Shown: piece after piece, positions 6,961 to 51,317 of the stretch
How positions within the stretch are numbered: position 1 is the first letter of the stretch
How the letters are laid out: each line of letters opens with the position of its first letter
Assembly (NCBI GenBank): GCA_964531475.1
Contig: CAZHCS010000001.1
Coordinates: 112,739 to 176,738, forward strand
Direction: 5' to 3'
DNA length: 64,000 nucleotides
Origin: an uncultured Candidatus Saccharibacteria bacterium
GTDB lineage: Bacteria > Patescibacteriota > Minisyncoccia > Phycocordibacterales > CSBR16-119
Position numbers and translations under genes: made by a program
Notes under the pieces: generated by a model
What the model was told of the DNA's origin: nothing
What the model saw: the letters and a program-made list of their open reading frames with translations, nothing else
Databases searched by the model: none

Positions 6961-7650
6961 TCACGCTGCGATCGCATCCAACCTGACGCGCACTAGTACT
7001 CCCGTAACTGCCCCCTTTTGACCAGGCTGATGAGCCTTGACCTCGACACACGTGGTCGCGACGAGGGTCGCCCTGAGGCGCTCTTTACTGATGAGCTTCG
7101 TGGTAACACTGCAGATGCCATAGGTCTTGTTACGAATGCGGAGCAGGGCGTTCTCCAAGTTCTTGATGAACTTCTCTTGCCGCCCGGCAAGCCGTGACGT
7201 CTCTTCGCGGCTCAGCGTCTCGCTGCCATCCTCGATGAGCTTCAAGCTGGCAGAATCGGTATTCTCCGTGCCGTTGCTGTCGGTATTGGCAAGTGTCCGC
7301 TTCAAGATCTCGTAGTCATTGCGAGCATCGTCCAACTTCTTTTCGATGAGTAGCTTGAATTCTTCCAGCTCCGGATCACTGTAACGTTTGCGATTACCGG
7401 GCTCGAGTGTGGACTTTCCTCCCGGGACGACATTAGGCATCTCCTTTCTGCGCATCGGCGGTCCAGCAACCCTAACGAGCGACGGTTCCGCCTGCGGAGG
7501 ATTGTCCAGCTCGGTTGGTTTTTTCTTGCGCGTTCTCGTGGTTTTGGCCACCGGCTCCTTCGTTGCTTTGACCGCACTCTTGCGAGCCGGTTTAGCCACT
7601 TTCGCGACCTTCCCGGACTCAGCCTTCTTTAGGCTCTGTTTTTTACCCAT
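6961..7650 (-). CDS. DksA/TraR-family protein with lysine/alanine-rich H1-like N-terminal tail
   Basis: The C-terminus (...NKTYGICSVTTKLISKERLRATLVATTCVEVK) resembles a DksA coiled-coil plus a 2-Cys degenerate zinc finger. The first ~90 aa are K/A/P-rich. Start taken at MGKKQSL (7650). Confidence 0.6.
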   Translation of the reverse strand: MGKKQSLKKAESGKVAKVAKPARKSAVKATKEPVAKTTRTRKKKPTELDNPPQAEPSLVRVAGPPMRRKEMPNVVPGGKSTLEPGNRKRYSDPELEEFKLLIEKKLDDARNDYEILKRTLANTDSNGTENTDSASLKLIEDGSETLSREETSRLAGRQEKFIKNLENALLRIRNKTYGICSVTTKLISKERLRATLVATTCVEVKAHQPGQKGAVTGVLVRVRLDAIAA

Positions 7651-13220: not shown

Positions 13221-13228
13221 GAGGGTAA

Positions 13229-13256
13229 GTTTATAGTTTTTAGGTTATAGTTTATA
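13229..13256. repeat. TTATAGTTTTTAG-type spacer motif, copy A
   Basis: tttatagtttttaggttatagtttatag lies in the fba-rpiB spacer and is part of a 17-bp stem inverted repeat (aggttatagtttatagt / actataaactataacct). Confidence 0.5.
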
Positions 13257-13297
13257 GTAAAAAATCTATGCACTATAAACTATAACCTATGCACTCG

Positions 13298-13741
13298 CTA
13301 ATTATCTAATTTCATTATCCTCCTATTGTGTCGTTCATCTCCGGAAAATTTTGTGGAAAGAAATAGATCAACGGCGGCTTTCGCTTCTTGTTCTGAAATA
13401 AATCGTGCACCGAGCGAGAGAATATTCGCATCATTGTGCTCGCGTGCGAGCTTGATGATTTCTTCTGGTCCGCCGTAGTAGACCGCAGCACGAACACCGA
13501 AAAGCCTGTTAGCCTCTACGGCTTCACCCGTTCCAGTTCCACCGATAACAATACCGAAGGCGTTGGAATCAGTTTCTGCCACCCCTTCGGCAACAAGCGC
13601 GACGAAGTCTGGATAATCGTCTGTCGGATCAAAATGCTCCGGACCCTTGTCCACGACCTCGTGTCCCATAAGCCCAAGATGGCTCACGAGCACTTTCTTC
13701 ATTTCAAAACCGGCGTGATCGCTTGCGATGTAGATTTTCAT
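13298..13741 (-). CDS. rpiB: Ribose-5-phosphate isomerase B
   Basis: MKIYIASDHAGFEMK... RpiB/LacAB family, 147 aa. Confidence 0.85.
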   Translation of the reverse strand: MKIYIASDHAGFEMKKVLVSHLGLMGHEVVDKGPEHFDPTDDYPDFVALVAEGVAETDSNAFGIVIGGTGTGEAVEANRLFGVRAAVYYGGPEEIIKLAREHNDANILSLGARFISEQEAKAAVDLFLSTKFSGDERHNRRIMKLDN

Positions 13742-13745
13742 GTTT

Positions 13746-13773
13746 AGTTTATAGTTTTTAGCTTATAGTGTAT
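13746..13773. repeat. TTATAGTTTTTAG-type spacer motif, copy B
   Basis: tttatagtttttagcttatagtgtatag lies in the rpiB / 4-helix-bundle spacer. Confidence 0.5.
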
Positions 13774-13779
13774 AGAGTA

Positions 13780-14136
13780 TTATTTCAGTTTCTGTCTCAT
13801 TGAGTTTAACATTTTCATTACTTCTGCCAATAGCTTCTCTGCAATTGAAGTATCAATGTTTTTACCGAATGGAAGATTTCTCAGCAAAATTAGTTGAGTC
13901 TCTAGTTCTGCACTTGACCCGTAGGCTATTGTAATAAAATTACAAAAATCCTTTCTTGTCCCTCGTTTACTACCTTCAGCAATATTGGACGGAATTGAAA
14001 CTGCGCATCTGTTCATCTGGGAAGAGAGTCCGAATTTCTCTGATTGTGGTAGCTGAGACGTGATCTCGTATACCTTAATTGCCAACTCCATACTCTTCTG
14101 CCAAACGACCAGGTCTTTGTTGGAATCCAAGCCCAT
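13780..14136 (-). CDS. Four-helix-bundle protein (PF05635-like; rRNA-IVS protein / Avd-like family)
   Basis: ...VWQKSMELAIKVYEIT...NRCAVSIPSNIAEGSKRGTRKDFCNFITIAYGSSAELETQLILL..., the hallmark pattern of this family. Length 118 aa. Confidence 0.7.
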   Translation of the reverse strand: MGLDSNKDLVVWQKSMELAIKVYEITSQLPQSEKFGLSSQMNRCAVSIPSNIAEGSKRGTRKDFCNFITIAYGSSAELETQLILLRNLPFGKNIDTSIAEKLLAEVMKMLNSMRQKLK

Positions 14137-14140
14137 ATTC

Positions 14141-14168
14141 GTCGTCTATAAACTATGCACTAAAAACT
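14141..14168. repeat. TTATAGTTTTTAG-type spacer motif, copy C (inverted)
   Basis: The reverse complement reads gcttatagtttttagtgcatagtttatag, in the 4-helix-bundle / gap spacer. Confidence 0.5.
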
Positions 14169-15201
14169 ATAAGCTCGTCGCTGTCTTCAGTACGTGCTGA
14201 AGCAGCGTCGCCGTATACCCCATCTCGTTGTCGTACCAAGCCATAACTTTGACCAGGTTGCCGCCAACGACGCGCGTCATCTCTAGGTCGACAATGCTCG
14301 GGATCGTCACGCCGATAATGTCTGAGGAAACGATCGGCTCGTCAGTTGCAGTCAGAAGTCCTACCCAACGCGGATCTTTCGAAGCGGTAACGAGAATCTT
14401 GTTAACCTCTTCAACCGTCGTTGGTCTCTTGGAAATGAACGTCACGTCGACAAGCGAGCCGACTGGCACCGGCACGCGAATGGAAATGCCGTCGAAAAGT
14501 CCGGTTAGCGCAGGGAAAGCTTTGGTCACCGCTATCGCCGCGCCCGTAGAACTTGGGACAATATTTTCCGCCGCAGCCCTGCCCTCTCGCAAATCTTTTT
14601 TAGACGGTCCATCAACGAGCGCCTGCGACGCCGTGTATCCGTGAACGGTGGAGAGGATTGCCTTTTCAATACCGAGAGATTCGTGCAAAACGCCAATAAG
14701 TGGCGACGCGGCATTCGTCGTGCATGAAGCATTGGACGTAATATCACATGTGCCGAATTTGTCTTCGTTAACGCCAAGAAGAATCGTTTCGCCAGGTACT
14801 GTTCCGTCAGAGTCTTTCGCTGGCGCGGAAATGACAACCTTCTTCGCACCCTGGTCGAGATGGAATTTGGCCTTCTCAAACGAAGTAAAAAGTCCCGTTG
14901 ATTCTACGACAACGTCGATATTTAAATCTTTCCATGGAAGTCCTGCGGGGTCTTTGGAAGAAACAAATTTCGTCTCGAGCTTTTTAGCACCATCAGAAAC
15001 GACAAGGTTACCGGAACTAAAATCCACAGAAAAAGGCGCACGACCATACACTGTGTCGTATTTGAGGAGATACGCGAGACTTTCTATAGTGCCAAGGTCG
15101 TTCACAGCCACGACTTCTATATCGTCGCGCTCCCAGGCCATCTTATAAAAAGCTCGCCCAATGCGACCAAAACCGTTTATGGCAACACGTACTTTTTGCA
15201 T
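14167..15201 (-). CDS. gap: Glyceraldehyde-3-phosphate dehydrogenase
   Basis: NGFGRIGR Rossmann motif and the SCTTNA active-site signature. Confidence 0.9.
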   Translation of the reverse strand: MQKVRVAINGFGRIGRAFYKMAWERDDIEVVAVNDLGTIESLAYLLKYDTVYGRAPFSVDFSSGNLVVSDGAKKLETKFVSSKDPAGLPWKDLNIDVVVESTGLFTSFEKAKFHLDQGAKKVVISAPAKDSDGTVPGETILLGVNEDKFGTCDITSNASCTTNAASPLIGVLHESLGIEKAILSTVHGYTASQALVDGPSKKDLREGRAAAENIVPSSTGAAIAVTKAFPALTGLFDGISIRVPVPVGSLVDVTFISKRPTTVEEVNKILVTASKDPRWVGLLTATDEPIVSSDIIGVTIPSIVDLEMTRVVGGNLVKVMAWYDNEMGYTATLLQHVLKTATSL

Positions 15202-15260
15202 GAAGATATTTTATCACCACATACTGAAAATACCTCAACAAGTATTTGTCTTATCCACAA

Positions 15261-15285
15261 CTGGTCGAGGTCGGACCTCGACCAG
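15261..15285. repeat. REP palindrome, family 1 (inverted copy)
   Basis: CTGGTCGAGGTCgGACCTCGACCAG, a 25-bp palindrome 18 nt upstream of the RAYT start. Confidence 0.7.
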
Positions 15286-15302
15286 TTTGTTAAAATTAAT
15301 CT

Positions 15303-15920
15303 ATGACTCGAAAAGATTCCTTTACGACCGGTTATCATTATCACGTTTATAATCGTGGTGTCGATAAAAGAAACATTTTCAAAAGCAAATCTGATTATGC
15401 TCGATTTTTAGACATACTCGAGCGTTTCAATAGTTCCCTAGCTGCAAATAATACGTCACGTGATTCAGTTCGCAAGAGAAAAGAAGACCTATCGTTAGTC
15501 AAAATTCACGCACATTGCTTAATGCCGAATCATTACCATCTTATTTTGGAGCAGCTTGTAGACAATGGGATTTCAAAATTTCTTCAAAAAGTAATGACGG
15601 GCTATACGATGTATTTCAATTTGAAACACGAACGATCAGGCGTTTTATTCCAAGGCAAGACAAAATCAAAACTTATACTAGAGGACGACTATCTCCGTTG
15701 GCTTAAGCAGTACATTGCACTCAATCCACTCGATCTCCATACACCAAATTGGAAAGAAAATGGAATTCAAGATCATAAAAGTGCAATCAATTTTTTGAAA
15801 GATTACGCTTATAGAAGCGAATACGATTATAACGATTGCGACCTTAACGGCTTTATTAAAGAATTACAAGAAGACAACTGGTCGAGGTCCGACCTCGACC
15901 AGGTGCGCGTTGAGAAATAA
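15303..15920 (+). CDS. IS200-like Y1 transposase (REP-associated tyrosine transposase, RAYT-like)
   Basis: HUH motif CLMPNHYHLILE and the catalytic-Tyr helix KQYIALNPLDL. The 3' end of the ORF runs through a REP copy. Confidence 0.8.
   Translation: MTRKDSFTTGYHYHVYNRGVDKRNIFKSKSDYARFLDILERFNSSLAANNTSRDSVRKRKEDLSLVKIHAHCLMPNHYHLILEQLVDNGISKFLQKVMTGYTMYFNLKHERSGVLFQGKTKSKLILEDDYLRWLKQYIALNPLDLHTPNWKENGIQDHKSAINFLKDYAYRSEYDYNDCDLNGFIKELQEDNWSRSDLDQVRVEK
15878..15902. repeat. REP palindrome, family 1
   Basis: CTGGTCGAGGTCcGACCTCGACCAG inside the last codons of the RAYT gene (WSRSDLDQV). Confidence 0.7.
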
Positions 15921-15980
15921 ATTGGTGGAAAAGCAAAGCGCCCCGTCGAAACAGGGCGCCAAGATGCTATTAGCTCATGC

Positions 15981-16463
15981 CTACGGCAGGTAGTACTTGA
16001 GATCCGAGTACCCGCCATCACTATCAGGATTAGCTTCCCACCCGAAGTCTTTCACCAGATGGTCTCTGAGCAGCTGTGCCATGGCAGCAAGTGCCTTTTT
16101 CCATTCAGGGTATTTCGTTTCAGAGTCCCTGAAGTCCACATAGTGAACACCGTCGGTGATACCGAGGATGCAATGATAGCGCTCTCCCTCATTGGGATAC
16201 AGGTTGATTCTCAACCCGATCAGATCTACGTCTTTGTTAATATCGAAAACGTACCTGGTCAATATTGTCATTCCAGGATATTCGTCACTAAGTCTTGCCC
16301 CCTTGGCATTGTTTGAATGACCATCAAGATCAAGAATTGCCTCTGGGGGCAAGACCTCTAGCCTGACACCCTTGTTCTCTGAGTTATGAACGTCCCACCG
16401 CTGAAAAGCGTCTGCCAACTCCTCAACGAGAACTCGAGCGATCTTATACTGGAGCATGTCCAT
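15981..16463 (-). CDS. Hypothetical protein
   Basis: 160-aa ORF adjacent to the RAYT unit. No motif recognised. Confidence 0.45.
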   Translation of the reverse strand: MDMLQYKIARVLVEELADAFQRWDVHNSENKGVRLEVLPPEAILDLDGHSNNAKGARLSDEYPGMTILTRYVFDINKDVDLIGLRINLYPNEGERYHCILGITDGVHYVDFRDSETKYPEWKKALAAMAQLLRDHLVKDFGWEANPDSDGGYSDLKYYLP

Positions 16464-16537
16464 TTTGCAATTGTGTTGTGCCCTTTTCAGGAGCTGGTTT
16501 GTACTTTTTGTGTCGGTAATTTTATAGCATTTTATTA

Positions 16538-17962
16538 CTATTTTGTCAATATTTCCTGGAGTATCTTCAAGGCAAGCTGCGGATTGGCGCTTCCCTTAGA
16601 CTCACGCATAAACTGCCCGACGAGGAATTGGATGGATTTTTCGTTACCGGATTTGTAGTCTAGGGCGACTTTCGGATTGGCGACGATGATGGCTTCGGCG
16701 GTGGCCTTGAGTTTACCTTCGTCGAATTCTTGAATGAGGCCGTGCTCTTTGGCGAAAGTCTCTGGATCGATATCAGCTTTTACGATTTCCGCGATAAGGT
16801 CTTTGGCTCCACGAGAGCTTAGTTTATTGTCGCCGAGCATCTGCATGATTTTCGCAAAGCTTTCTGGTTTCGGGAATTTAAAATCTGCGCCAGCAATCTT
16901 TCGAAGACCATTTAAATCAGACAAAATATAGTTCACTGCTGGTCGAGGTCCGACCTCGACCAGGATTGCTTCGAGAAATTGGATTAATTCAAAATCTGAA
17001 ACGAGAATCTCAACATCCTCATCTTTAATGCCAAGCGCCTTCAGCCTCTCACGCTTCGCAGACGGAAGTTCTGGCAATTCCGCTCGCATCTTTTCAAGAT
17101 CAAACATCTCATGCAAGTACATCTTCGGAATATCTGGTTCCGGGAAGTAACGATAGTCGTGAGAATCTTCTTTCTTCCTTTGTGAAAATGTCGATTGTTT
17201 GTTTTCGTCCCATCCGCGCGTTTCTTGGATAATCTCGCTTCCCTTGCCAGCTTCAAGAAGCGCAATGTGGCGCTTGATCTCGTACTCGGCCGCTTTTTCG
17301 ACAGCTTTGAAAGAGTTTATGTTTTTGACTTCGACTTTTGTGCCAAATTTGTCCGTATCAGAAACAGACAAGTTCAGCTCTACACGCATTTCACCCTTTT
17401 CCATGTTCGCATCAGACACACCGAGGGTTCGGAGAAGTAATTGGAGTTCGCGTCCGAAGTCACCCGCTTCTTTGGCGCTATGAATTACTGGTTCGGTAAC
17501 GAGTTCCATGAGTGGCACACCAGCGCGATTGTAGTCGATGAGCGAAAAGCCCGCCCCGACCGAAGCGTCGGGGTCGCCATCCCTGTGTTTGTTGTTCGCG
17601 GTATCTTCTTCGAGATGCACGCGCGTTACAGCGACACCATTGAGTTTTCCACCAGAAACGATCGGATATTTGTATTGAGAAATTTGGTAGCCTTTCGGGA
17701 TATCCGGATAGAAATAGTTCTTGCGGTCAAATTCGGTGAAGTTCGCGATGTTGGCACCGAGCGCGAGGCCGACTTTGACCACGCTCTCGACGGCTTTCAT
17801 ATTCGGCACAGGCAAAGTTCCTGGATGCGCCATACATACGGGACAAACATTGACGTTTGGCTTTTCCTCGTCGGGATTATTCCGGCACGCGCAAAACATC
17901 TTGGTAGTTGTTTTCAACTCCGCGTGAATTTCTAACCCAATTGTGACTTTGTAATCTTTCAT
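16538..17962 (-). CDS. gatB: Asp-tRNA(Asn)/Glu-tRNA(Gln) amidotransferase subunit B
   Basis: MKDYKVTIGLEIHAEL... GatB N-terminus and a C-terminal GatB/YqeY domain. It contains an in-frame REP copy at 16939-16963. Confidence 0.9.
   Translation of the reverse strand: MKDYKVTIGLEIHAELKTTTKMFCACRNNPDEEKPNVNVCPVCMAHPGTLPVPNMKAVESVVKVGLALGANIANFTEFDRKNYFYPDIPKGYQISQYKYPIVSGGKLNGVAVTRVHLEEDTANNKHRDGDPDASVGAGFSLIDYNRAGVPLMELVTEPVIHSAKEAGDFGRELQLLLRTLGVSDANMEKGEMRVELNLSVSDTDKFGTKVEVKNINSFKAVEKAAEYEIKRHIALLEAGKGSEIIQETRGWDENKQSTFSQRKKEDSHDYRYFPEPDIPKMYLHEMFDLEKMRAELPELPSAKRERLKALGIKDEDVEILVSDFELIQFLEAILVEVGPRPAVNYILSDLNGLRKIAGADFKFPKPESFAKIMQMLGDNKLSSRGAKDLIAEIVKADIDPETFAKEHGLIQEFDEGKLKATAEAIIVANPKVALDYKSGNEKSIQFLVGQFMRESKGSANPQLALKILQEILTK
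16939..16963. repeat. REP palindrome, family 1, embedded in-frame in gatB
   Basis: An identical 25-mer encoding LVEVGPRPA within the GatB linker region. Confidence 0.7.
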
Positions 17963-20800: not shown

Positions 20801-21147
20801 TAGTCTTCTTTGTTCTTGCCGAACATGCTGCCGATCCAGTTGAACACCGACACAACAAGAGAGCCGAAAAGCGCCGCGGTGAATGTATCAACGTCCATAC
20901 CCGGCACGATTCCCGAGACGAACCAGAAGAAGAGCGCGTTCAAAACAACAAGGAAGATACCGAGAGTAATGATGGTAATAGGTAGTGTCAGGATGCGGAT
21001 GATTGGCTTGACGATGAACTGAACGACAGTGAGAAGCGCGCCGGCGATAACAATCGTTAACCAGCCATCAGTGTGGACACCGGCAACGAGATAATCGGCC
21101 AAGAAGACCGCGACCGAAAGTAATATGAGTCGTATGAGTAATTTCAT
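20800..21147 (-). CDS. DUF360/holin-4-like small membrane protein
   Basis: 115 aa with 3-4 TM segments. Its start codon lies directly against the inverted-repeat element at 21148. Confidence 0.55.
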   Translation of the reverse strand: MKLLIRLILLSVAVFLADYLVAGVHTDGWLTIVIAGALLTVVQFIVKPIIRILTLPITIITLGIFLVVLNALFFWFVSGIVPGMDVDTFTAALFGSLVVSVFNWIGSMFGKNKED

Positions 21148-21256
21148 CCCGTTAGAAGCAGGTCGCGGTCTTTCCGCTCCATGCTTGGTTATTATTTTTA
21201 ATCATAAACATAATTTTAGCATAGTTTAAAGATTCGTGACCGCGGCTTCTAACGGG
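21148..21256. repeat. CCCGTTAG-TIR palindromic element, copy 1
   Basis: Arms cccgttagaagcaggtcgcggtc / gaccgcggcttctaacggg with an AT-rich core. Flanks are TTCAT on the left and ATTCATG on the right. Confidence 0.65.
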
Positions 21257-21271
21257 ATTCATGTCAATAAT

Positions 21272-24606: not shown

Positions 24607-24629
24607 TGTGCTAAAATATTGTCATGAAT

Positions 24630-24745
24630 CCCGTTAGAGATGTTTCGGTTTAGTATTTAATGGGAATCATGATTTTTTATGGTCGTTAATCACTTAGAAA
24701 AAAATAGCCTAGGTACGCAAACCAAAGTTTGCTATCTCTAACGGG
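24630..24745. repeat. CCCGTTAG-TIR palindromic element, copy 2 (degenerate)
   Basis: 12-bp arms cccgttagagat / atctctaacggg. The right end abuts the rmuC ATG. Confidence 0.5.
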
Positions 24746-25774: not shown

Positions 25775-25799
25775 CTGGTCGAGGTCCGACCTCGACCAG
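25775..25799. repeat. REP palindrome, family 1
   Basis: An identical 25-mer starting directly after the rmuC stop codon. Confidence 0.7.
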
Positions 25800-44532: not shown

Positions 44533-44635
44533 ATAAAAAGTATAGCAAAAAATCCCTTTCTCTTCTGGCGAACTGATTTAGCCGCGCAGCCCCTCTTCCC
44601 TCGCCACCTTCCCACCCTCTAGACAAAAGATCCTC

Positions 44636-44664
44636 CAATATTCAAGGTCGAACCTTGAATATTG
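44636..44664. repeat. REP palindrome, family 2
   Basis: CAATATTCAAGGTCGAACCTTGAATATTG, abutting the RAYT-2 stop codon. Confidence 0.65.
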
Positions 44665-44665
44665 A

Positions 44666-45280
44666 CTAATCTTCATCATCAAGCAACCCAAGCCTTTCAG
44701 CACCACTTAAGTACTTTATATATGGATCATAGTTATCACAGCTTGACCATTGAAAAGTCTTCAGGAATTTCTTCGTCTTTTCAAGCGAAATCACCCTTCC
44801 CCTTTCTCGCCAACCCTTTTCATACAGGTCTACCGGATTGAGAAGAAGGTATGTTTTCACCTGCTTATAATGCAGATCCGATGTTATAAATTTTGATTTA
44901 GTCTTACCTTGAAACAAGACACCGCTCCGTTGATGCCTCTTATTGAAATACATGGTATAGCTCGTCATCACGCGCTGCAAGAATTTTGAAATACCGCCAT
45001 CAACCTTTTGCTCAAGGATGAGATGGTAATGATTAGGCATGAGGCAATAGTCCAATATATCAACTAGCTGCTCGGCCTCCTTGCGCGGACCACGAGACTT
45101 TCCAGAAAGTCGTATGTCGAGATTCTTTTTCACGTTTCCCCGGATTCCTCTATTCAAATATTCGAGAATGAACAAGAACCTTTCGTAGTCATGTTTGTCC
45201 AGAAATGTTTTTCTCTTATCGGTCCCGCGATTATAAACGTGATATCTTTCACCAGTTATAAATGGTTCTCGAAATCCCAT
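44666..45280 (-). CDS. IS200-like Y1 transposase (RAYT-like), second paralog
   Basis: HUH motif CLMPNHYHLILEQ and the Tyr helix KTYLLLNPVDL. It is about 50% identical to the 15303 copy. Confidence 0.8.
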   Translation of the reverse strand: MGFREPFITGERYHVYNRGTDKRKTFLDKHDYERFLFILEYLNRGIRGNVKKNLDIRLSGKSRGPRKEAEQLVDILDYCLMPNHYHLILEQKVDGGISKFLQRVMTSYTMYFNKRHQRSGVLFQGKTKSKFITSDLHYKQVKTYLLLNPVDLYEKGWRERGRVISLEKTKKFLKTFQWSSCDNYDPYIKYLSGAERLGLLDDED

Positions 45281-45292
45281 CCGACCATTATA

Positions 45293-45327
45293 CCCCAGTA
45301 TCCAAGGTTCGACCTTGAATACTGGGG
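45293..45327. repeat. REP palindrome, family 2 (variant)
   Basis: CCCCAGTATCCAAGGTTCGACCTTGAATACTGGGG, 13 nt upstream of the RAYT-2 start. Confidence 0.65.
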
Positions 45328-46105: not shown

Positions 46106-46783
46106 CTACTTTAGTTTCTCTTCCCTCGTTACCCTCCCATCCTCTAGATAGACGATCCTATCGCAAAAGAGTGTATATTCCCTTTCGTGGGTGACCATGA
46201 CGATGGTCTGACCGCGCTTGTTGATATCGCGCATGACTTCGATAATGTGATTGCCCGATGCGGAATCTAGGTTCGCCGTCGGCTCGTCGGCAAACAGAAT
46301 CTTTGGTTCTAGTGCAAGTGCGCGAGCGATCGATACGCGCTGCTGCTCCCCGCCAGAGAGCTGGTTTGGGCGATTCTGCAGACGATGACCGAGCCCCACT
46401 TCTTCGAGGGATTTAATAGCCTTTGCGCGACACACTGAGTCGGAATAGCCGCGCATCATGAGCGGCACCATAACATTTTCGAGCGCATTGAGTTCCGGCA
46501 CGAGCGCGTAGTCCTGGAAAACGTAACCAAGCTGGTCGAGGCGAAACTTTGTCTTTTCCTTGTTCGAAAGCGCGCGGACGTCGATACCGTCTATGGTAAT
46601 CTCTCCGCCTGTCGGCTCGTCGAGCAGACTCATTTGATACATGAGAGTCGACTTGCCGGCGCCGGATTTGCCCATGATCGCCACAAACTCACCTGATTTG
46701 ACGGTGAGGTCGATGCCCTTCAAGACATGCGTCTCGACTTTTCCGTTTGCGAATATTTTGGTTATGTTTTTGACTTCGATCAT
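46106..46783 (-). CDS. ABC transporter ATP-binding protein (MacB/LolD-like)
   Basis: Walker [10 protein letters not shown] and the signature LSGGEQQR. Start at MIEVKNITK. Confidence 0.85.
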
Positions 46784-48037: not shown

Positions 48038-49411
48038 TTATTCGACGAAGCGCCCGACGAGCGTGTCACCTTCGGAGACACCCGTTACTACCTCGACCAT
48101 ACCATCCGAACCCTTGAGACCGACAACAACCGGGACATTTGTTTCTTCGTCGTCACGCAAAATAGTAACAGACGAACCAGAGTCATCTGTTGTGATAAAG
48201 CGCTGTGGCACGCGAAGAGTATTAATCACTTTTGATTTTTCTATAGAAACAGCGGCCGTCATGCCAGAACGAATACGTTCGTCTTCTTGCGAGAATAATA
48301 CTTTGGCACGATACATAGATACACCATCGACTTCTGTCTCTCCAGGATCGATAGAAGCAAGAGTGCCCGGGAAAATGGTTTCGCCATATGCGTCTAGAGT
48401 TATTGACGCAGGAAGACCAGGGATCAAGTTCACAATATCAGACTCCGGAACCTCTACAGAAACCTCGTATCCGCCAGAGGCTATGACGCCAGTGACAACT
48501 GTGCCTATTTCTGCCTGTTCACCGATTTTAATGTCGAGCCTAGAAACCGTACCAGCAAAAGGCGCTCTTATCGTGCGTTCGTTGAGTCGCGCCATTATGC
48601 GAGCAACGCCGGCCTCTGCTTGTTTTATTCGAGCCATGGATATTTCACGAGAGATATTGCCCTGGTCCGCGGCATCACGACTAGCAAGAGCCTTTTCGTA
48701 TGCGTTTAAGTTTTCGACGTAGAATTCTGATTCGACATTAGGTATATCTATCAACCAAACATCCGTGAGCGAAGTGTCTTCTTTGGTAAAAGACAGATAG
48801 AGCCCTTTGGTTCCAAGAGCTATCGGCTTATAAAAATTTATCTCGGCGAAACCAGTTTCAAGACCGGTGTATCTTATCTTTAGACGTGAAGCGCCACCGG
48901 AAGACTCTATTTCTATGCGGTATTGACCCTCGTCTGCACCGCGATAACTACCTGAAACAGTAGGAGGCTCATTGTCGTTGTCTGTGTCGCGCGAATAGGC
49001 TTCCAATCCTTCAGAGAGAAGTTTGGCACGGGCACTTGCAACATCTGTATCGGTTTCTGCATCAGAAACTTTCGCCTCGGCGCGAGCAAGGTCAAGTGTC
49101 GCCTGTGCATCCTGTAGCTCGGCATACAATGTTGCATTGTCGAGTTCGACGATTTTTCCCCCAGCAACAACTGTGTCGCCGGCTTTCTTGTAGATGCGAG
49201 CCACAGTGCCAGATTCGGAAAATGCCATATCAGCGCCTTGCACCGGCTGCGCTTCGCCGTTTAGTACCAACATGTCTACGACATCGCCGCGCTCGACAGT
49301 AAACGTCGAAGTCTGGTCGTCTTTCTTGCCACCGGCAATGAGAAGAATAAGAATAAGCGCGACTGCGCCAATGATCAATTTCTTTTTGTGTTTGGTCCAA
49401 AATGCTTTCAT
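48038..49411 (-). CDS. HlyD/MacA-family periplasmic adaptor
   Basis: TM segment, coiled coil, then lipoyl and beta-barrel pattern. The ATG at 49411 is preferred over the track's start, which lies inside the IR element. Confidence 0.8.
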   Translation of the reverse strand: MKAFWTKHKKKLIIGAVALILILLIAGGKKDDQTSTFTVERGDVVDMLVLNGEAQPVQGADMAFSESGTVARIYKKAGDTVVAGGKIVELDNATLYAELQDAQATLDLARAEAKVSDAETDTDVASARAKLLSEGLEAYSRDTDNDNEPPTVSGSYRGADEGQYRIEIESSGGASRLKIRYTGLETGFAEINFYKPIALGTKGLYLSFTKEDTSLTDVWLIDIPNVESEFYVENLNAYEKALASRDAADQGNISREISMARIKQAEAGVARIMARLNERTIRAPFAGTVSRLDIKIGEQAEIGTVVTGVIASGGYEVSVEVPESDIVNLIPGLPASITLDAYGETIFPGTLASIDPGETEVDGVSMYRAKVLFSQEDERIRSGMTAAVSIEKSKVINTLRVPQRFITTDDSGSSVTILRDDEETNVPVVVGLKGSDGMVEVVTGVSEGDTLVGRFVE

Positions 49412-49491
49412 CCCGTTAGTGACAGGTCGCGCTCTCACGTGCCTGATAATTTAGATTTGTAATATCCCGAGCGACCACGGTCACTAACGGG
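49412..49491. repeat. CCCGTTAG-TIR palindromic element, copy 3
   Basis: Arms cccgttagtgacaggtcgcgc / gcgaccacggtcactaacggg. The left end abuts the HlyD-like gene ATG. Confidence 0.65.
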
Positions 49492-49557
49492 ATTCATGGC
49501 AACATAATAACATGAAAACGTCCGATTTAGAAGACTGTTTTTTCAATTAAAACAAGA

Positions 49558-50705: not shown

Positions 50706-51194
50706 CTATTTGAACATAATAGTCATTTCTGCCGCATCATCGAACTGGGATTCGCCGGATGGATTGTCCTTCTGAAAGATAAGCGTACCGCGTTCGCCAT
50801 AGGCCGGTTTTACAAATGTAAGAGTCCCCGAGAACGGCACGTAATCTGTCGTCATCCATTCGCCCTCTGCCATCACATATCCTTCGGCAATAATGAGACC
50901 GTCCCAGTCGGTCAGCGTAACCGGCGCAGAAGCTTCGAAGAACCAATTACCCGGCGCGCGTCCGCGAATAACGAGCGGATTTTCGATACTGTCGCCATCT
51001 TTCAAGTTTTCGACATATATCTTGATCCCGCGAATACTCGTTAGCTCGGTTTCAACTGGAGCCGCAGGAACGGTTGGCGACGGATCCAAGACGACTGGTG
51101 TTTCGGTAGGATGATTTATCTTATTCAACACAACAACAACCAAGATCGCTCCGACTATTACGATAAGTATATTTTTCATAAGATTCCACTGCAT
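50706..51194 (-). CDS. Secreted hypothetical protein
   Basis: The ATG at 51194 lies directly against IR element copy 4. An alternative start is MKNILIV at 51179. It has a TM segment/signal and a beta-rich domain. Confidence 0.5.
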   Translation of the reverse strand: MQWNLMKNILIVIVGAILVVVVLNKINHPTETPVVLDPSPTVPAAPVETELTSIRGIKIYVENLKDGDSIENPLVIRGRAPGNWFFEASAPVTLTDWDGLIIAEGYVMAEGEWMTTDYVPFSGTLTFVKPAYGERGTLIFQKDNPSGESQFDDAAEMTIMFK

Positions 51195-51308
51195 CCCGTT
51201 AGAGACAGGTCGCGGTGATCCCGCGATATGCCTTGATAATGTTTATAATTTTTATATTATTAATCATTGCAGATTTTCCAGAATTTAGCGACCGCGGTCT
51301 CTAACGGG
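51195..51308. repeat. CCCGTTAG-TIR palindromic element, copy 4
   Basis: Arms cccgttagagacaggtcgcggtg / agcgaccgcggtctctaacggg with an AT-rich core. Flanks are TGCAT on the left and ATGCAT on the right. Confidence 0.65.
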
Positions 51309-51317
51309 ATGCATAGA

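Follow-up and report, generated by a model that had tools for sequence, protein, structure and literature searches.

A probable lineage-specific REP/RAYT system with perfect, low-copy hairpins in Patescibacteria

A 64-kb stretch of contig CAZHCS010000001.1 from an uncultured Candidatus Saccharibacteria bacterium (hereafter the window; copy counts given for the window refer to those 64 kb only) probably holds two REPtron-like units. Each comprises a Y1 HUH enzyme, encoded on the chromosome and inherited vertically, of the type known as REP-associated tyrosine transposase (RAYT) and, at both ends of its gene, its own perfect hairpin, a repetitive extragenic palindrome (REP). We refer to the units as RAYT-A with REP-A and RAYT-B with REP-B. 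Work on REP/RAYT systems has centred on Proteobacteria. In the literature searched there was no characterisation of such a system in the candidate phyla radiation (CPR), nor of a CPR-wide RAYT-like clade with its own type of REP, in agreement with the original prediction for this DNA, which had supposed the architecture to be uncharacterised in CPR-like lineages; the sole literature match on a CPR RAYT was the mere use of the KEGG label K07491.

REP-A is a 25-mer, CTGGTCGAGGTC(S)GACCTCGACCAG, written in full CTGGTCGAGGTCSGACCTCGACCAG, with four exact copies in the window, at 15261, 15878, 16939 and 25775; the central base is G in the first copy and C in the other three. Copy 1 (15259-15287, with the 25-mer core at 15261-15285) extends to a palindrome of 29 bp in the divergent intergenic region between gap and RAYT-A. 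The original prediction had reported this palindrome upstream of the gene, and the measured distance from the end of the copy to the RAYT-A ATG is 17 nt. Copy 2 (15878-15902) lies within the 3′ end of RAYT-A and is translated as WSRSDLDQ. It had been described as inverted and as forming the last codons of the gene: the inversion stands, depends on the central base alone and is not conserved in close relatives, and the palindrome does not end the gene, as five further codons (VRVEK) precede the stop. Copy 3 (16939-16963, centre C on the + strand) is in frame in gatB, where its minus-strand translation reads LVEVGPRP, and copy 4 (25775-25799) directly follows the TAG stop of an rmuC-like open reading frame (ORF). 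These are the only two REP-A copies away from RAYT-A in the window, and both had been listed by the original prediction as identical 25-mers, which they are. A search of the window for the 25-mer with up to 3 mismatches detected no copy beyond the four, and the control, 100 dinucleotide-preserving shuffles of the window, gave 0 matches. The GTDB species representatives contained no match to the exact 25-mer; a metagenome scan for it returned four short contigs, which represent two distinct sites, each in two assemblies.

Hairpin energies were computed on single-stranded DNA and compared with shuffles. The REP-A and REP-B copies form stems of 11-13 bp closed by a 3-nt loop, with energies of -11.6 to -14.8 kcal/mol and folding z of -5.8 to -8.1, and no shuffle folds equally well. 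Perfect stems of at least 8 bp number 26 in the window versus ~6 in shuffles, and those that are not REPs resemble GC-rich intrinsic terminators. An Rfam scan of the window recovered two tRNAs only and no RNA family at any hairpin, and a sigma-70 promoter scan of the RAYT-A region yielded nothing useful on the gene strand. The absence of a stop codon in any frame was considered as a selected property of REPs and dropped: it is true of REP-A, but the REPs of relatives have stops, exemplified by TAG and TGA triplets in the hairpin of L012 (L-numbered loci such as L005 and L103 are stretches of related genomes or contigs that were compared with the window).

RAYT-A (15303-15920, + strand) encodes a 205-aa protein whose catalytic motifs and fold match those of a Y1 HUH enzyme. 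Both motifs named in the original prediction were found, NHYHLIL at residues 76-82 and QYIALNP at residues 136-142, and their catalytic residues are invariant in an alignment of 26 family sequences. The invariant positions are Y13, H14, N17, R18 and G19, M74, P75, N76, H77 and H79, and Y137, N141 and P142; the HUH motif corresponds to H77-Y-H79, and Y137 is placed on a predicted helix spanning residues 128-140. The last 13 residues, encoded by the REP and its read-through, are predicted to be disordered. An AlphaFold2 model (pLDDT 82.8) was compared with the PDB using Foldseek. The best fold match was 4ER8, the E. coli TnpA_REP in complex with a REP hairpin (E 5.9e-7), followed by the TnpA proteins of ISDra2, IS608 and IS200; all of the top 18 matches are TnpA_REP or IS200/IS605 TnpA (probability 1.00, target-normalised TM-score <=0.67).

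Profile comparisons favour a RAYT assignment for the family. At a match threshold of E<=0.01, all 26 aligned family members match both Pfam PF01797 (Y1_Tnp; best E 9.4e-13) and the NCBIfam RAYT equivalog NF047646 (best E 4.4e-14), and the IS200 model NF033573 is matched by 1/26, with the RAYT model preferred. A wider search gathered 2,135 family proteins at E<=0.001. The majority carry a precomputed PF01797 match, and the few that are named read 'transposase [Patescibacteria group bacterium]'. RAYT-A is a Y1 HUH enzyme that is closer to RAYTs than to IS200 transposases and belongs to a distinct clade.

RAYT-B (44666-45280, - strand) encodes a 204-aa paralog with the same HUH and Tyr motifs and 51% identity to RAYT-A (E 4e-61), consistent with the second, diverged RAYT with REPs of its own that had been predicted at 44.6 kb. 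The upstream REP-B copy (45293-45327) reads CCCCAGTATTCAAGGT-CGA-ACCTTGGATACTGGGG on the gene strand, contains one T.G mismatch and stops 12 nt short of the RAYT-B start; the downstream copy (44636-44664) reads CAATATTCAAGGT-TCG-ACCTTGAATATTG on the gene strand and begins 2 nt past the stop. Their loops, CGA and TCG, are reverse complements. These two flanking copies are the only REP-B in the window, and none lies apart from the gene. The order FtsX-ABC-RAYT-DsbD at this locus is kept in relatives. An 83%-identical direct repeat was also observed here (44593-44634 versus 46118-46159), and the sequence just 3′ of the REP-B/RAYT-B unit is a relic of the last ~45 nt of the ABC-ATPase ORF, reading RIFCLEGGKVAREEGLRG*. 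The 1,525 bp between the two ABC-ATPase repeat copies contain a 172-aa ORF, both REP-B copies and RAYT-B. The RAYT-B unit may have arrived by an old insertion or duplication, of which this arrangement would be the footprint; the syntenic locus L097 has no such relic.

The association between gene and hairpin extends across the family. A scan of GTDB species representatives identified at least 585 related loci, and 80 of them were kept for hairpin analysis; their titles are nearly all those of Patescibacteria candidate groups. In 45/80 of these loci the same hairpin is found ~30-50 nt upstream of the gene (about -40) and again at or beside its stop codon, an arrangement seen in 0/591 control ORFs (the other ORFs of >=150 aa from the same 80 loci). 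Hairpin sequence varies by lineage, and protein lineage and hairpin co-vary. The element that is conserved is the apical AGG...CCT: AGG falls within the last 5 stem bases before the loop in 33/44 REP types, against ~4% expected by chance, and reads AGGT in 15 of those 33, as it does in both window types; the basal stem is variable. Loop comparisons between the two flanks gave 22 direct pairs, 20 exact reverse complements and 1 other. For REP-A itself, the flanks are inverted in the window and L103 and direct, with the same centre, in L008, L102 and L005. Flank orientation is therefore real, yet it is not fixed and is close to random across the family.

A third cognate hairpin lies in frame inside the RAYT-like ORF in 25/80 loci (for example L011, L013, L015, L020 and L047; in L011 at 7098-7116). 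It mostly occupies residues 50-65, reading QGRTL, QGSTL or similar, ahead of the HuH motif, and is sometimes located at residues ~150-160; RAYT-A and RAYT-B lack it. On a short contig, L073, two tandem RAYT-like genes (1332-2036 and ~2250-2960) both contain an internal copy of the same hairpin, and six hairpin copies occur within 4.3 kb. The original prediction had raised the possibility of inverted doublets (REP doublets forming hairpins, REPINs). None is present in the window, where all six REP-A and REP-B copies are singletons. As a separate observation, adjacent inverted hairpins form a longer, REPIN-like palindrome beside the RAYT-like gene in L021 (ACAAAGGTCGAACCTTTGTACAAAGGTTCGACCTTTGT), L023, L025, L052 and L078.

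The dispersed copies sit in or against protein-coding genes, and REP copies have been gained or lost between close relatives. The gatB gene that hosts copy 3 (16538-17962, - strand) is full length, and its product can be aligned over its whole length to solved GatB structures, with nothing inserted; the REP encodes the linker ahead of the YqeY-like tail domain. The two metagenome sites are likewise in frame: in rsmI the 25-mer is translated as GRGRTSTR, within a loop four residues longer than that of E. coli RsmI, and in prmC as LVEVRPRP, right before the VLDLCAGSG motif. In none of gatB, rsmI and prmC does the REP copy break the reading frame, and all three frames of the palindrome are therefore used. 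In L069, a relative's own REP is in frame in mnmA. One such difference between close relatives is at rmuC. L103, whose GatB is 95% identical to that of the window, carries the REP in gatB and at both RAYT flanks and has none at rmuC, where the flanking sequences are ~98% identical and the window has 38 nt, L103 25 nt, around a shared TCGAG.

At the gatB site, the REP follows its lineage. The window, L093 and L099 each carry their own lineage's variant at one shared codon position: the L093 copy reads TGTTCGAGGT..., and the L099 copy, GTATCAAGGT...ACCTCGA, has the same A.C mismatch as the RAYT flanks of that locus. Such lineage-matched copies exclude independent drift and require that REPs were either replaced in concert or re-inserted repeatedly at a single site. 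Neither L100 nor L101 has a RAYT between gatB and gap (a statement on this locus only), and their gatB site retains only a 5-bp perfect core, which fits the report that REPINs decay when a RAYT disappears.

These sites bear directly on a different explanation, in which the hairpins serve the host, for example as terminators or attenuators, as mRNA stabilisers or as sites bound by gyrase or another protein, and are kept identical by selection on that function, and the Y1 protein is a non-mobilising nuclease or binder of single-stranded DNA. The very low copy number would suit such a role, as would the hairpin positions, which are fixed family-wide at about -40 and at the RAYT stop codon; the third in-ORF hairpin of 25/80 loci could serve autoregulation, the hairpin is terminator-like in a consensus scan, and TnpA_Y1 subfamilies may have different roles (Quentin 2018). 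A terminator would, however, do harm within gatB, rsmI and prmC, three unrelated genes in which the copies are translated as linkers, and the window has an rmuC copy that a near-identical relative does not have. The gatB copy tracks the REP variant of its own lineage, and the stems are perfect Watson-Crick pairings on both strands with almost no asymmetry of the G.U type, which indicates hairpins of DNA and not of RNA. Overall, we regard host-functional sites as an unlikely explanation of the repeats.

Locus conservation further supports REPtron-like units. The order gap-RAYT-small ORF-gatB-obg is kept where RAYT identity to RAYT-A is 98, 83, 64 and 61% (98% in L008 and 83% in L005; identity is >=90% in L102). 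RAYT-A is under strong purifying selection, with a ratio of nonsynonymous to synonymous divergence (dN/dS) of 0.045-0.07 (0.07 against L008), and both RAYT genes occupy fixed syntenic loci. Against L005, pN is 0.096 and pS 0.71, the latter saturated, and both flanking 25-mers are identical between the two loci, although the intergenic DNA next to them is no longer alike. Hairpin changes between syntenic relatives at greater distance occur as compensatory pairs: CTGGTCGAGGTC-S-GACCTCGACCAG in the window corresponds to TGGTCGAGGTT-G-AACCTCGACCA in L091 and to TGTTCGAGGTC-C-GACCTCGAACA in L093. Single-copy, vertical, housekeeping-like behaviour is a described trait of domesticated RAYTs, and the gene behaves like these and not like an insertion sequence.

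The same data weigh on whether the hairpin-gene-hairpin units are autonomous insertion sequences of the IS200/IS605 type, with the hairpins as their ends and the solo hairpins as remnants or miniature derivatives. A Y1 gene between palindromes ~640-700 bp apart has the IS200 layout, the ends of IS200 and IS1541 are perfectly palindromic, and the ABC-ATPase 3′-end relic beyond RAYT-B could be read as an insertion footprint. Yet the window contains no identical or near-identical duplicate of either gene (its two units being 51% identical) and no adjacent ORF of tnpB size; synteny persists down to 61% protein identity with dN/dS well under 0.1; the IS200 model touches a single one of the 26 members; and the solo copies are exact 25-mers, not decayed ends. 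Carriage by phages or plasmids was rejected, since the family was essentially absent from 2.9 million viral contigs searched and the closest plasmid matches have at most 34% identity. Together, these observations make an insertion-sequence origin of the units highly improbable. A last alternative, that the 25-mer recurs by chance or through an error of assembly or a chimera, has only general caution over a metagenome-assembled contig in its favour. Its probability is negligible given the 0 matches in shuffles and the intact gatB, rsmI and prmC frames across the copies, and it is already refuted by other samples, assembled independently (L005-L010, L102 and L103), in which the identical 25-mer occupies the same sites.

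Several observations weigh against REPtron-like units, and they concern the protein, the repeats and the junctions. RAYT-A alone scores 22.9 bits against PF01797, where the curated gathering cut-off is 23 bits, and 30.5 bits against NF047646, whose cut-off of 80 bits is not reached; the Y1 and RAYT models, named as a check by the original prediction, are matched by the 26 family members at E<=0.01, and RAYT-A on its own lies below both curated cut-offs. A search of PDB sequences with the family profile ranked 4ER8 as a marginal match (E 0.13) under spurious dehydroquinase matches. Nunvar 2010 gives two RAYT-specific signatures, defined on gammaproteobacterial RAYTs: an N-terminal Thr that is conserved and, following the Tyr, NP(L/V)(R/K)xG. 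In the CPR family the Thr is replaced, with the motif reading YHVYNRG, and of the second signature only NP(L/V) is retained (NPLDLH in RAYT-A, NPVDLY in RAYT-B). No GT[AG]G tag is conserved by the hairpin, and no tetranucleotide is common to the flanks of all six known REP-A sites. Copy number is very low, with 4 A-type and 2 B-type copies in 64 kb; extrapolated genome-wide, this density implies tens of copies and not hundreds. Three of the four known REP-A sites apart from RAYT-A are in frame (gatB, rsmI and prmC), and the fourth abuts the rmuC stop. The architecture proposed by the original prediction accordingly holds for the Y1 RAYT-type enzyme, the cognate flanks and the copies elsewhere, and does not hold for a GTAG tag, a fixed orientation or extragenic copies.

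The junctions are also imprecise. At rmuC the window is a net 13 nt longer than L103, which is not a clean 25-nt insertion, and the gatB allele with the REP falls 12 nt short of the L005 allele, which has no REP, so a clean 25-nt insertion in gatB was rejected as well; neither junction is predicted by simple Y1 cut-and-paste. REP-type short GatB linkers (EVEPRV, EVGPRP) occur in at least 3 clades of a neighbor-joining tree without bootstrap, interspersed with the long GLxGExxKKAS type, which is also present in more distant homologs. The gatB gene of L102 (6161-7633) encodes a GatB that is 93-100% identical to that of the window over most of its length, except for a tract of ~80 residues around the linker that is 53-60% identical, resembles the L005 clade and lacks the REP. 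This mosaic indicates that REP-plus and REP-minus gatB alleles have been swapped by homologous recombination, which weakens two independent insertions as the sole cause of the patchy gatB pattern. The patchy presence of the gatB REP is due in part to homologous recombination and not to transposition. Finally, enzymatic activity in this clade, including the cleavage and joining of REPs, would follow from analogy with related enzymes, and no biochemical activity is on record.

On balance, REPtron-like units would account for these data by the following route, which draws on E. coli TnpA_REP and the TnpA proteins of IS608 and ISDra2. The enzyme would bind the hairpin as it forms in single-stranded DNA, for which the replication fork is the most plausible place, and may recognise it by the conserved AGG(T)-triloop-(A)CCT at the tip of the stem. 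Cleavage beside the hairpin would be carried out by Tyr137, with His77 and His79 holding the metal, and the strands would then be rejoined. Copying or replacement of REPs at a low rate may keep the few copies identical to a master sequence. A perfect palindrome gives nearly the same hairpin from both strands, which would explain why flank orientation is free. With almost no intergenic space, the copies that survive would be those that abut a stop codon or keep the frame within a protein linker that tolerates them.

A tentative extension, which we consider possible, is that besides inserting REPs the Y1 enzyme may also overwrite existing ones in place, REP to REP and in either orientation. Three observations would then be accounted for: the gatB REP changes in step with the REPs flanking the enzyme gene, as seen in three lineages; loops occur only in two complementary states; and stems remain perfect at saturated synonymous divergence. 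In that case the sub-megabase genomes of this clade would offer a natural low-copy record of RAYT-driven REP homogenisation.

Two further repeat groups were observed in the window. An unrelated family at 21142-21262, 49406-49497 and 51189-51314, with a half copy at 24612-24638, has ~30-nt inverted arms, TCATCCCGTTAGAGACAGGTCGCGGTC ... GACCGCGGTCTCTAACGGGATTCATG, separated by an AT-rich spacer of ~30-60 nt, and has no Rfam match. AT-rich repeats, AGTTTATAGTTTTTAG..., in direct and inverted orientation (13228-13257, 13732-13775 and 14146-14175), bracket a 118-aa ORF (13780-14136, minus strand) just upstream of gap.

Patescibacteria widely carry a distinct clade of RAYT-like genes, and many have two paralogs, each with a hairpin family of its own. 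Among complete genomes, non-IS Y1 genes were reported to be enriched in large ones and absent from the Mollicutes sampled (Quentin et al. 2018, the main text of which uses no CPR term), which makes their abundance in small CPR genomes mildly unexpected. The low copy number lets each REP be followed individually, including copies translated in essential genes, and makes the maintenance and movement of REPs by RAYTs accessible to comparative genomics and a simple oligonucleotide assay. With no GTAG guide and symmetric REPs, the predicted mode of recognition is unlike the two dissected in vitro.

Among the closest known systems, the E. coli REPtron (group 2 / subclass 2.2; 4ER8) shares a single-copy, housekeeping-like Y1 HUH gene, cognate palindromes on both sides, copies elsewhere and the HUH and Tyr catalytic residues, and it provides the best fold match. 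The sequence similarity between E. coli TnpA_REP and the CPR family is marginal at E 0.13, however, and the repeats differ: in E. coli each REP follows a GTAG and is an imperfect, bulged palindrome, and the ~600 copies are mostly extragenic and often in bacterial interspersed mosaic elements (BIMEs), whereas CPR REPs are perfect, untagged, few and mostly intragenic. More generally, classic REPs exceed 100 copies genome-wide. The group 3 / subclass 2.5 RAYTs of Pseudomonas and Stenotrophomonas share short perfect REPs, several diverged paralogs each with its own REP family, and co-evolution of RAYT and REP through compensatory stem changes. Their REPs carry the GTAG tag, number in the hundreds to thousands and replicate as inverted pairs, the REPINs, in contrast to the window, which has singletons only and in which the Nunvar signature motifs are not kept. 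Flanking REPs are 'always' inverted in the RAYTs described (Nunvar 2010); both window units have inverted flanks, and across the CPR family direct flanks are about as frequent as inverted ones.

The features that depart from the E. coli and group 3 systems have individual precedents. REPs in frame inside tnpA_REP are found in subclass 2.4 of Quentin et al. 2018, and flanking structures without GT[AG]G in its subclass 2.6 and class 3, in each case likewise in the CPR family, although the structures of subclass 2.6 are weak and the stems of the CPR family strong and perfect. The Rickettsia palindromic elements and intragenic REPs (Di Nocera et al. 2013) are also in-frame palindromes in housekeeping genes, translated as extra loop residues; in the CPR system, by comparison, one 25-nt unit takes the place of a linker about as long as itself, and copies of the repeat border a Y1 gene. 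With non-GTAG flanks, REPs within tnpA_REP and intragenic REPs already on record, no single trait is new. The IS200/IS605 enzymes (IS200, IS608 and ISDra2 TnpA) share the catalytic core, the fold, the hairpin-bordered gene and probably the single-strand DNA chemistry, but their copies are multiple, near-identical, horizontally transferred and often accompanied by tnpB, whereas the RAYT-A unit is single-copy, syntenic and under purifying selection. The system is REPtron-like in its operation, yet lacks several features that define canonical REP/RAYT systems; it is a lineage-specific version of the known REP/RAYT system and not a new kind of element.

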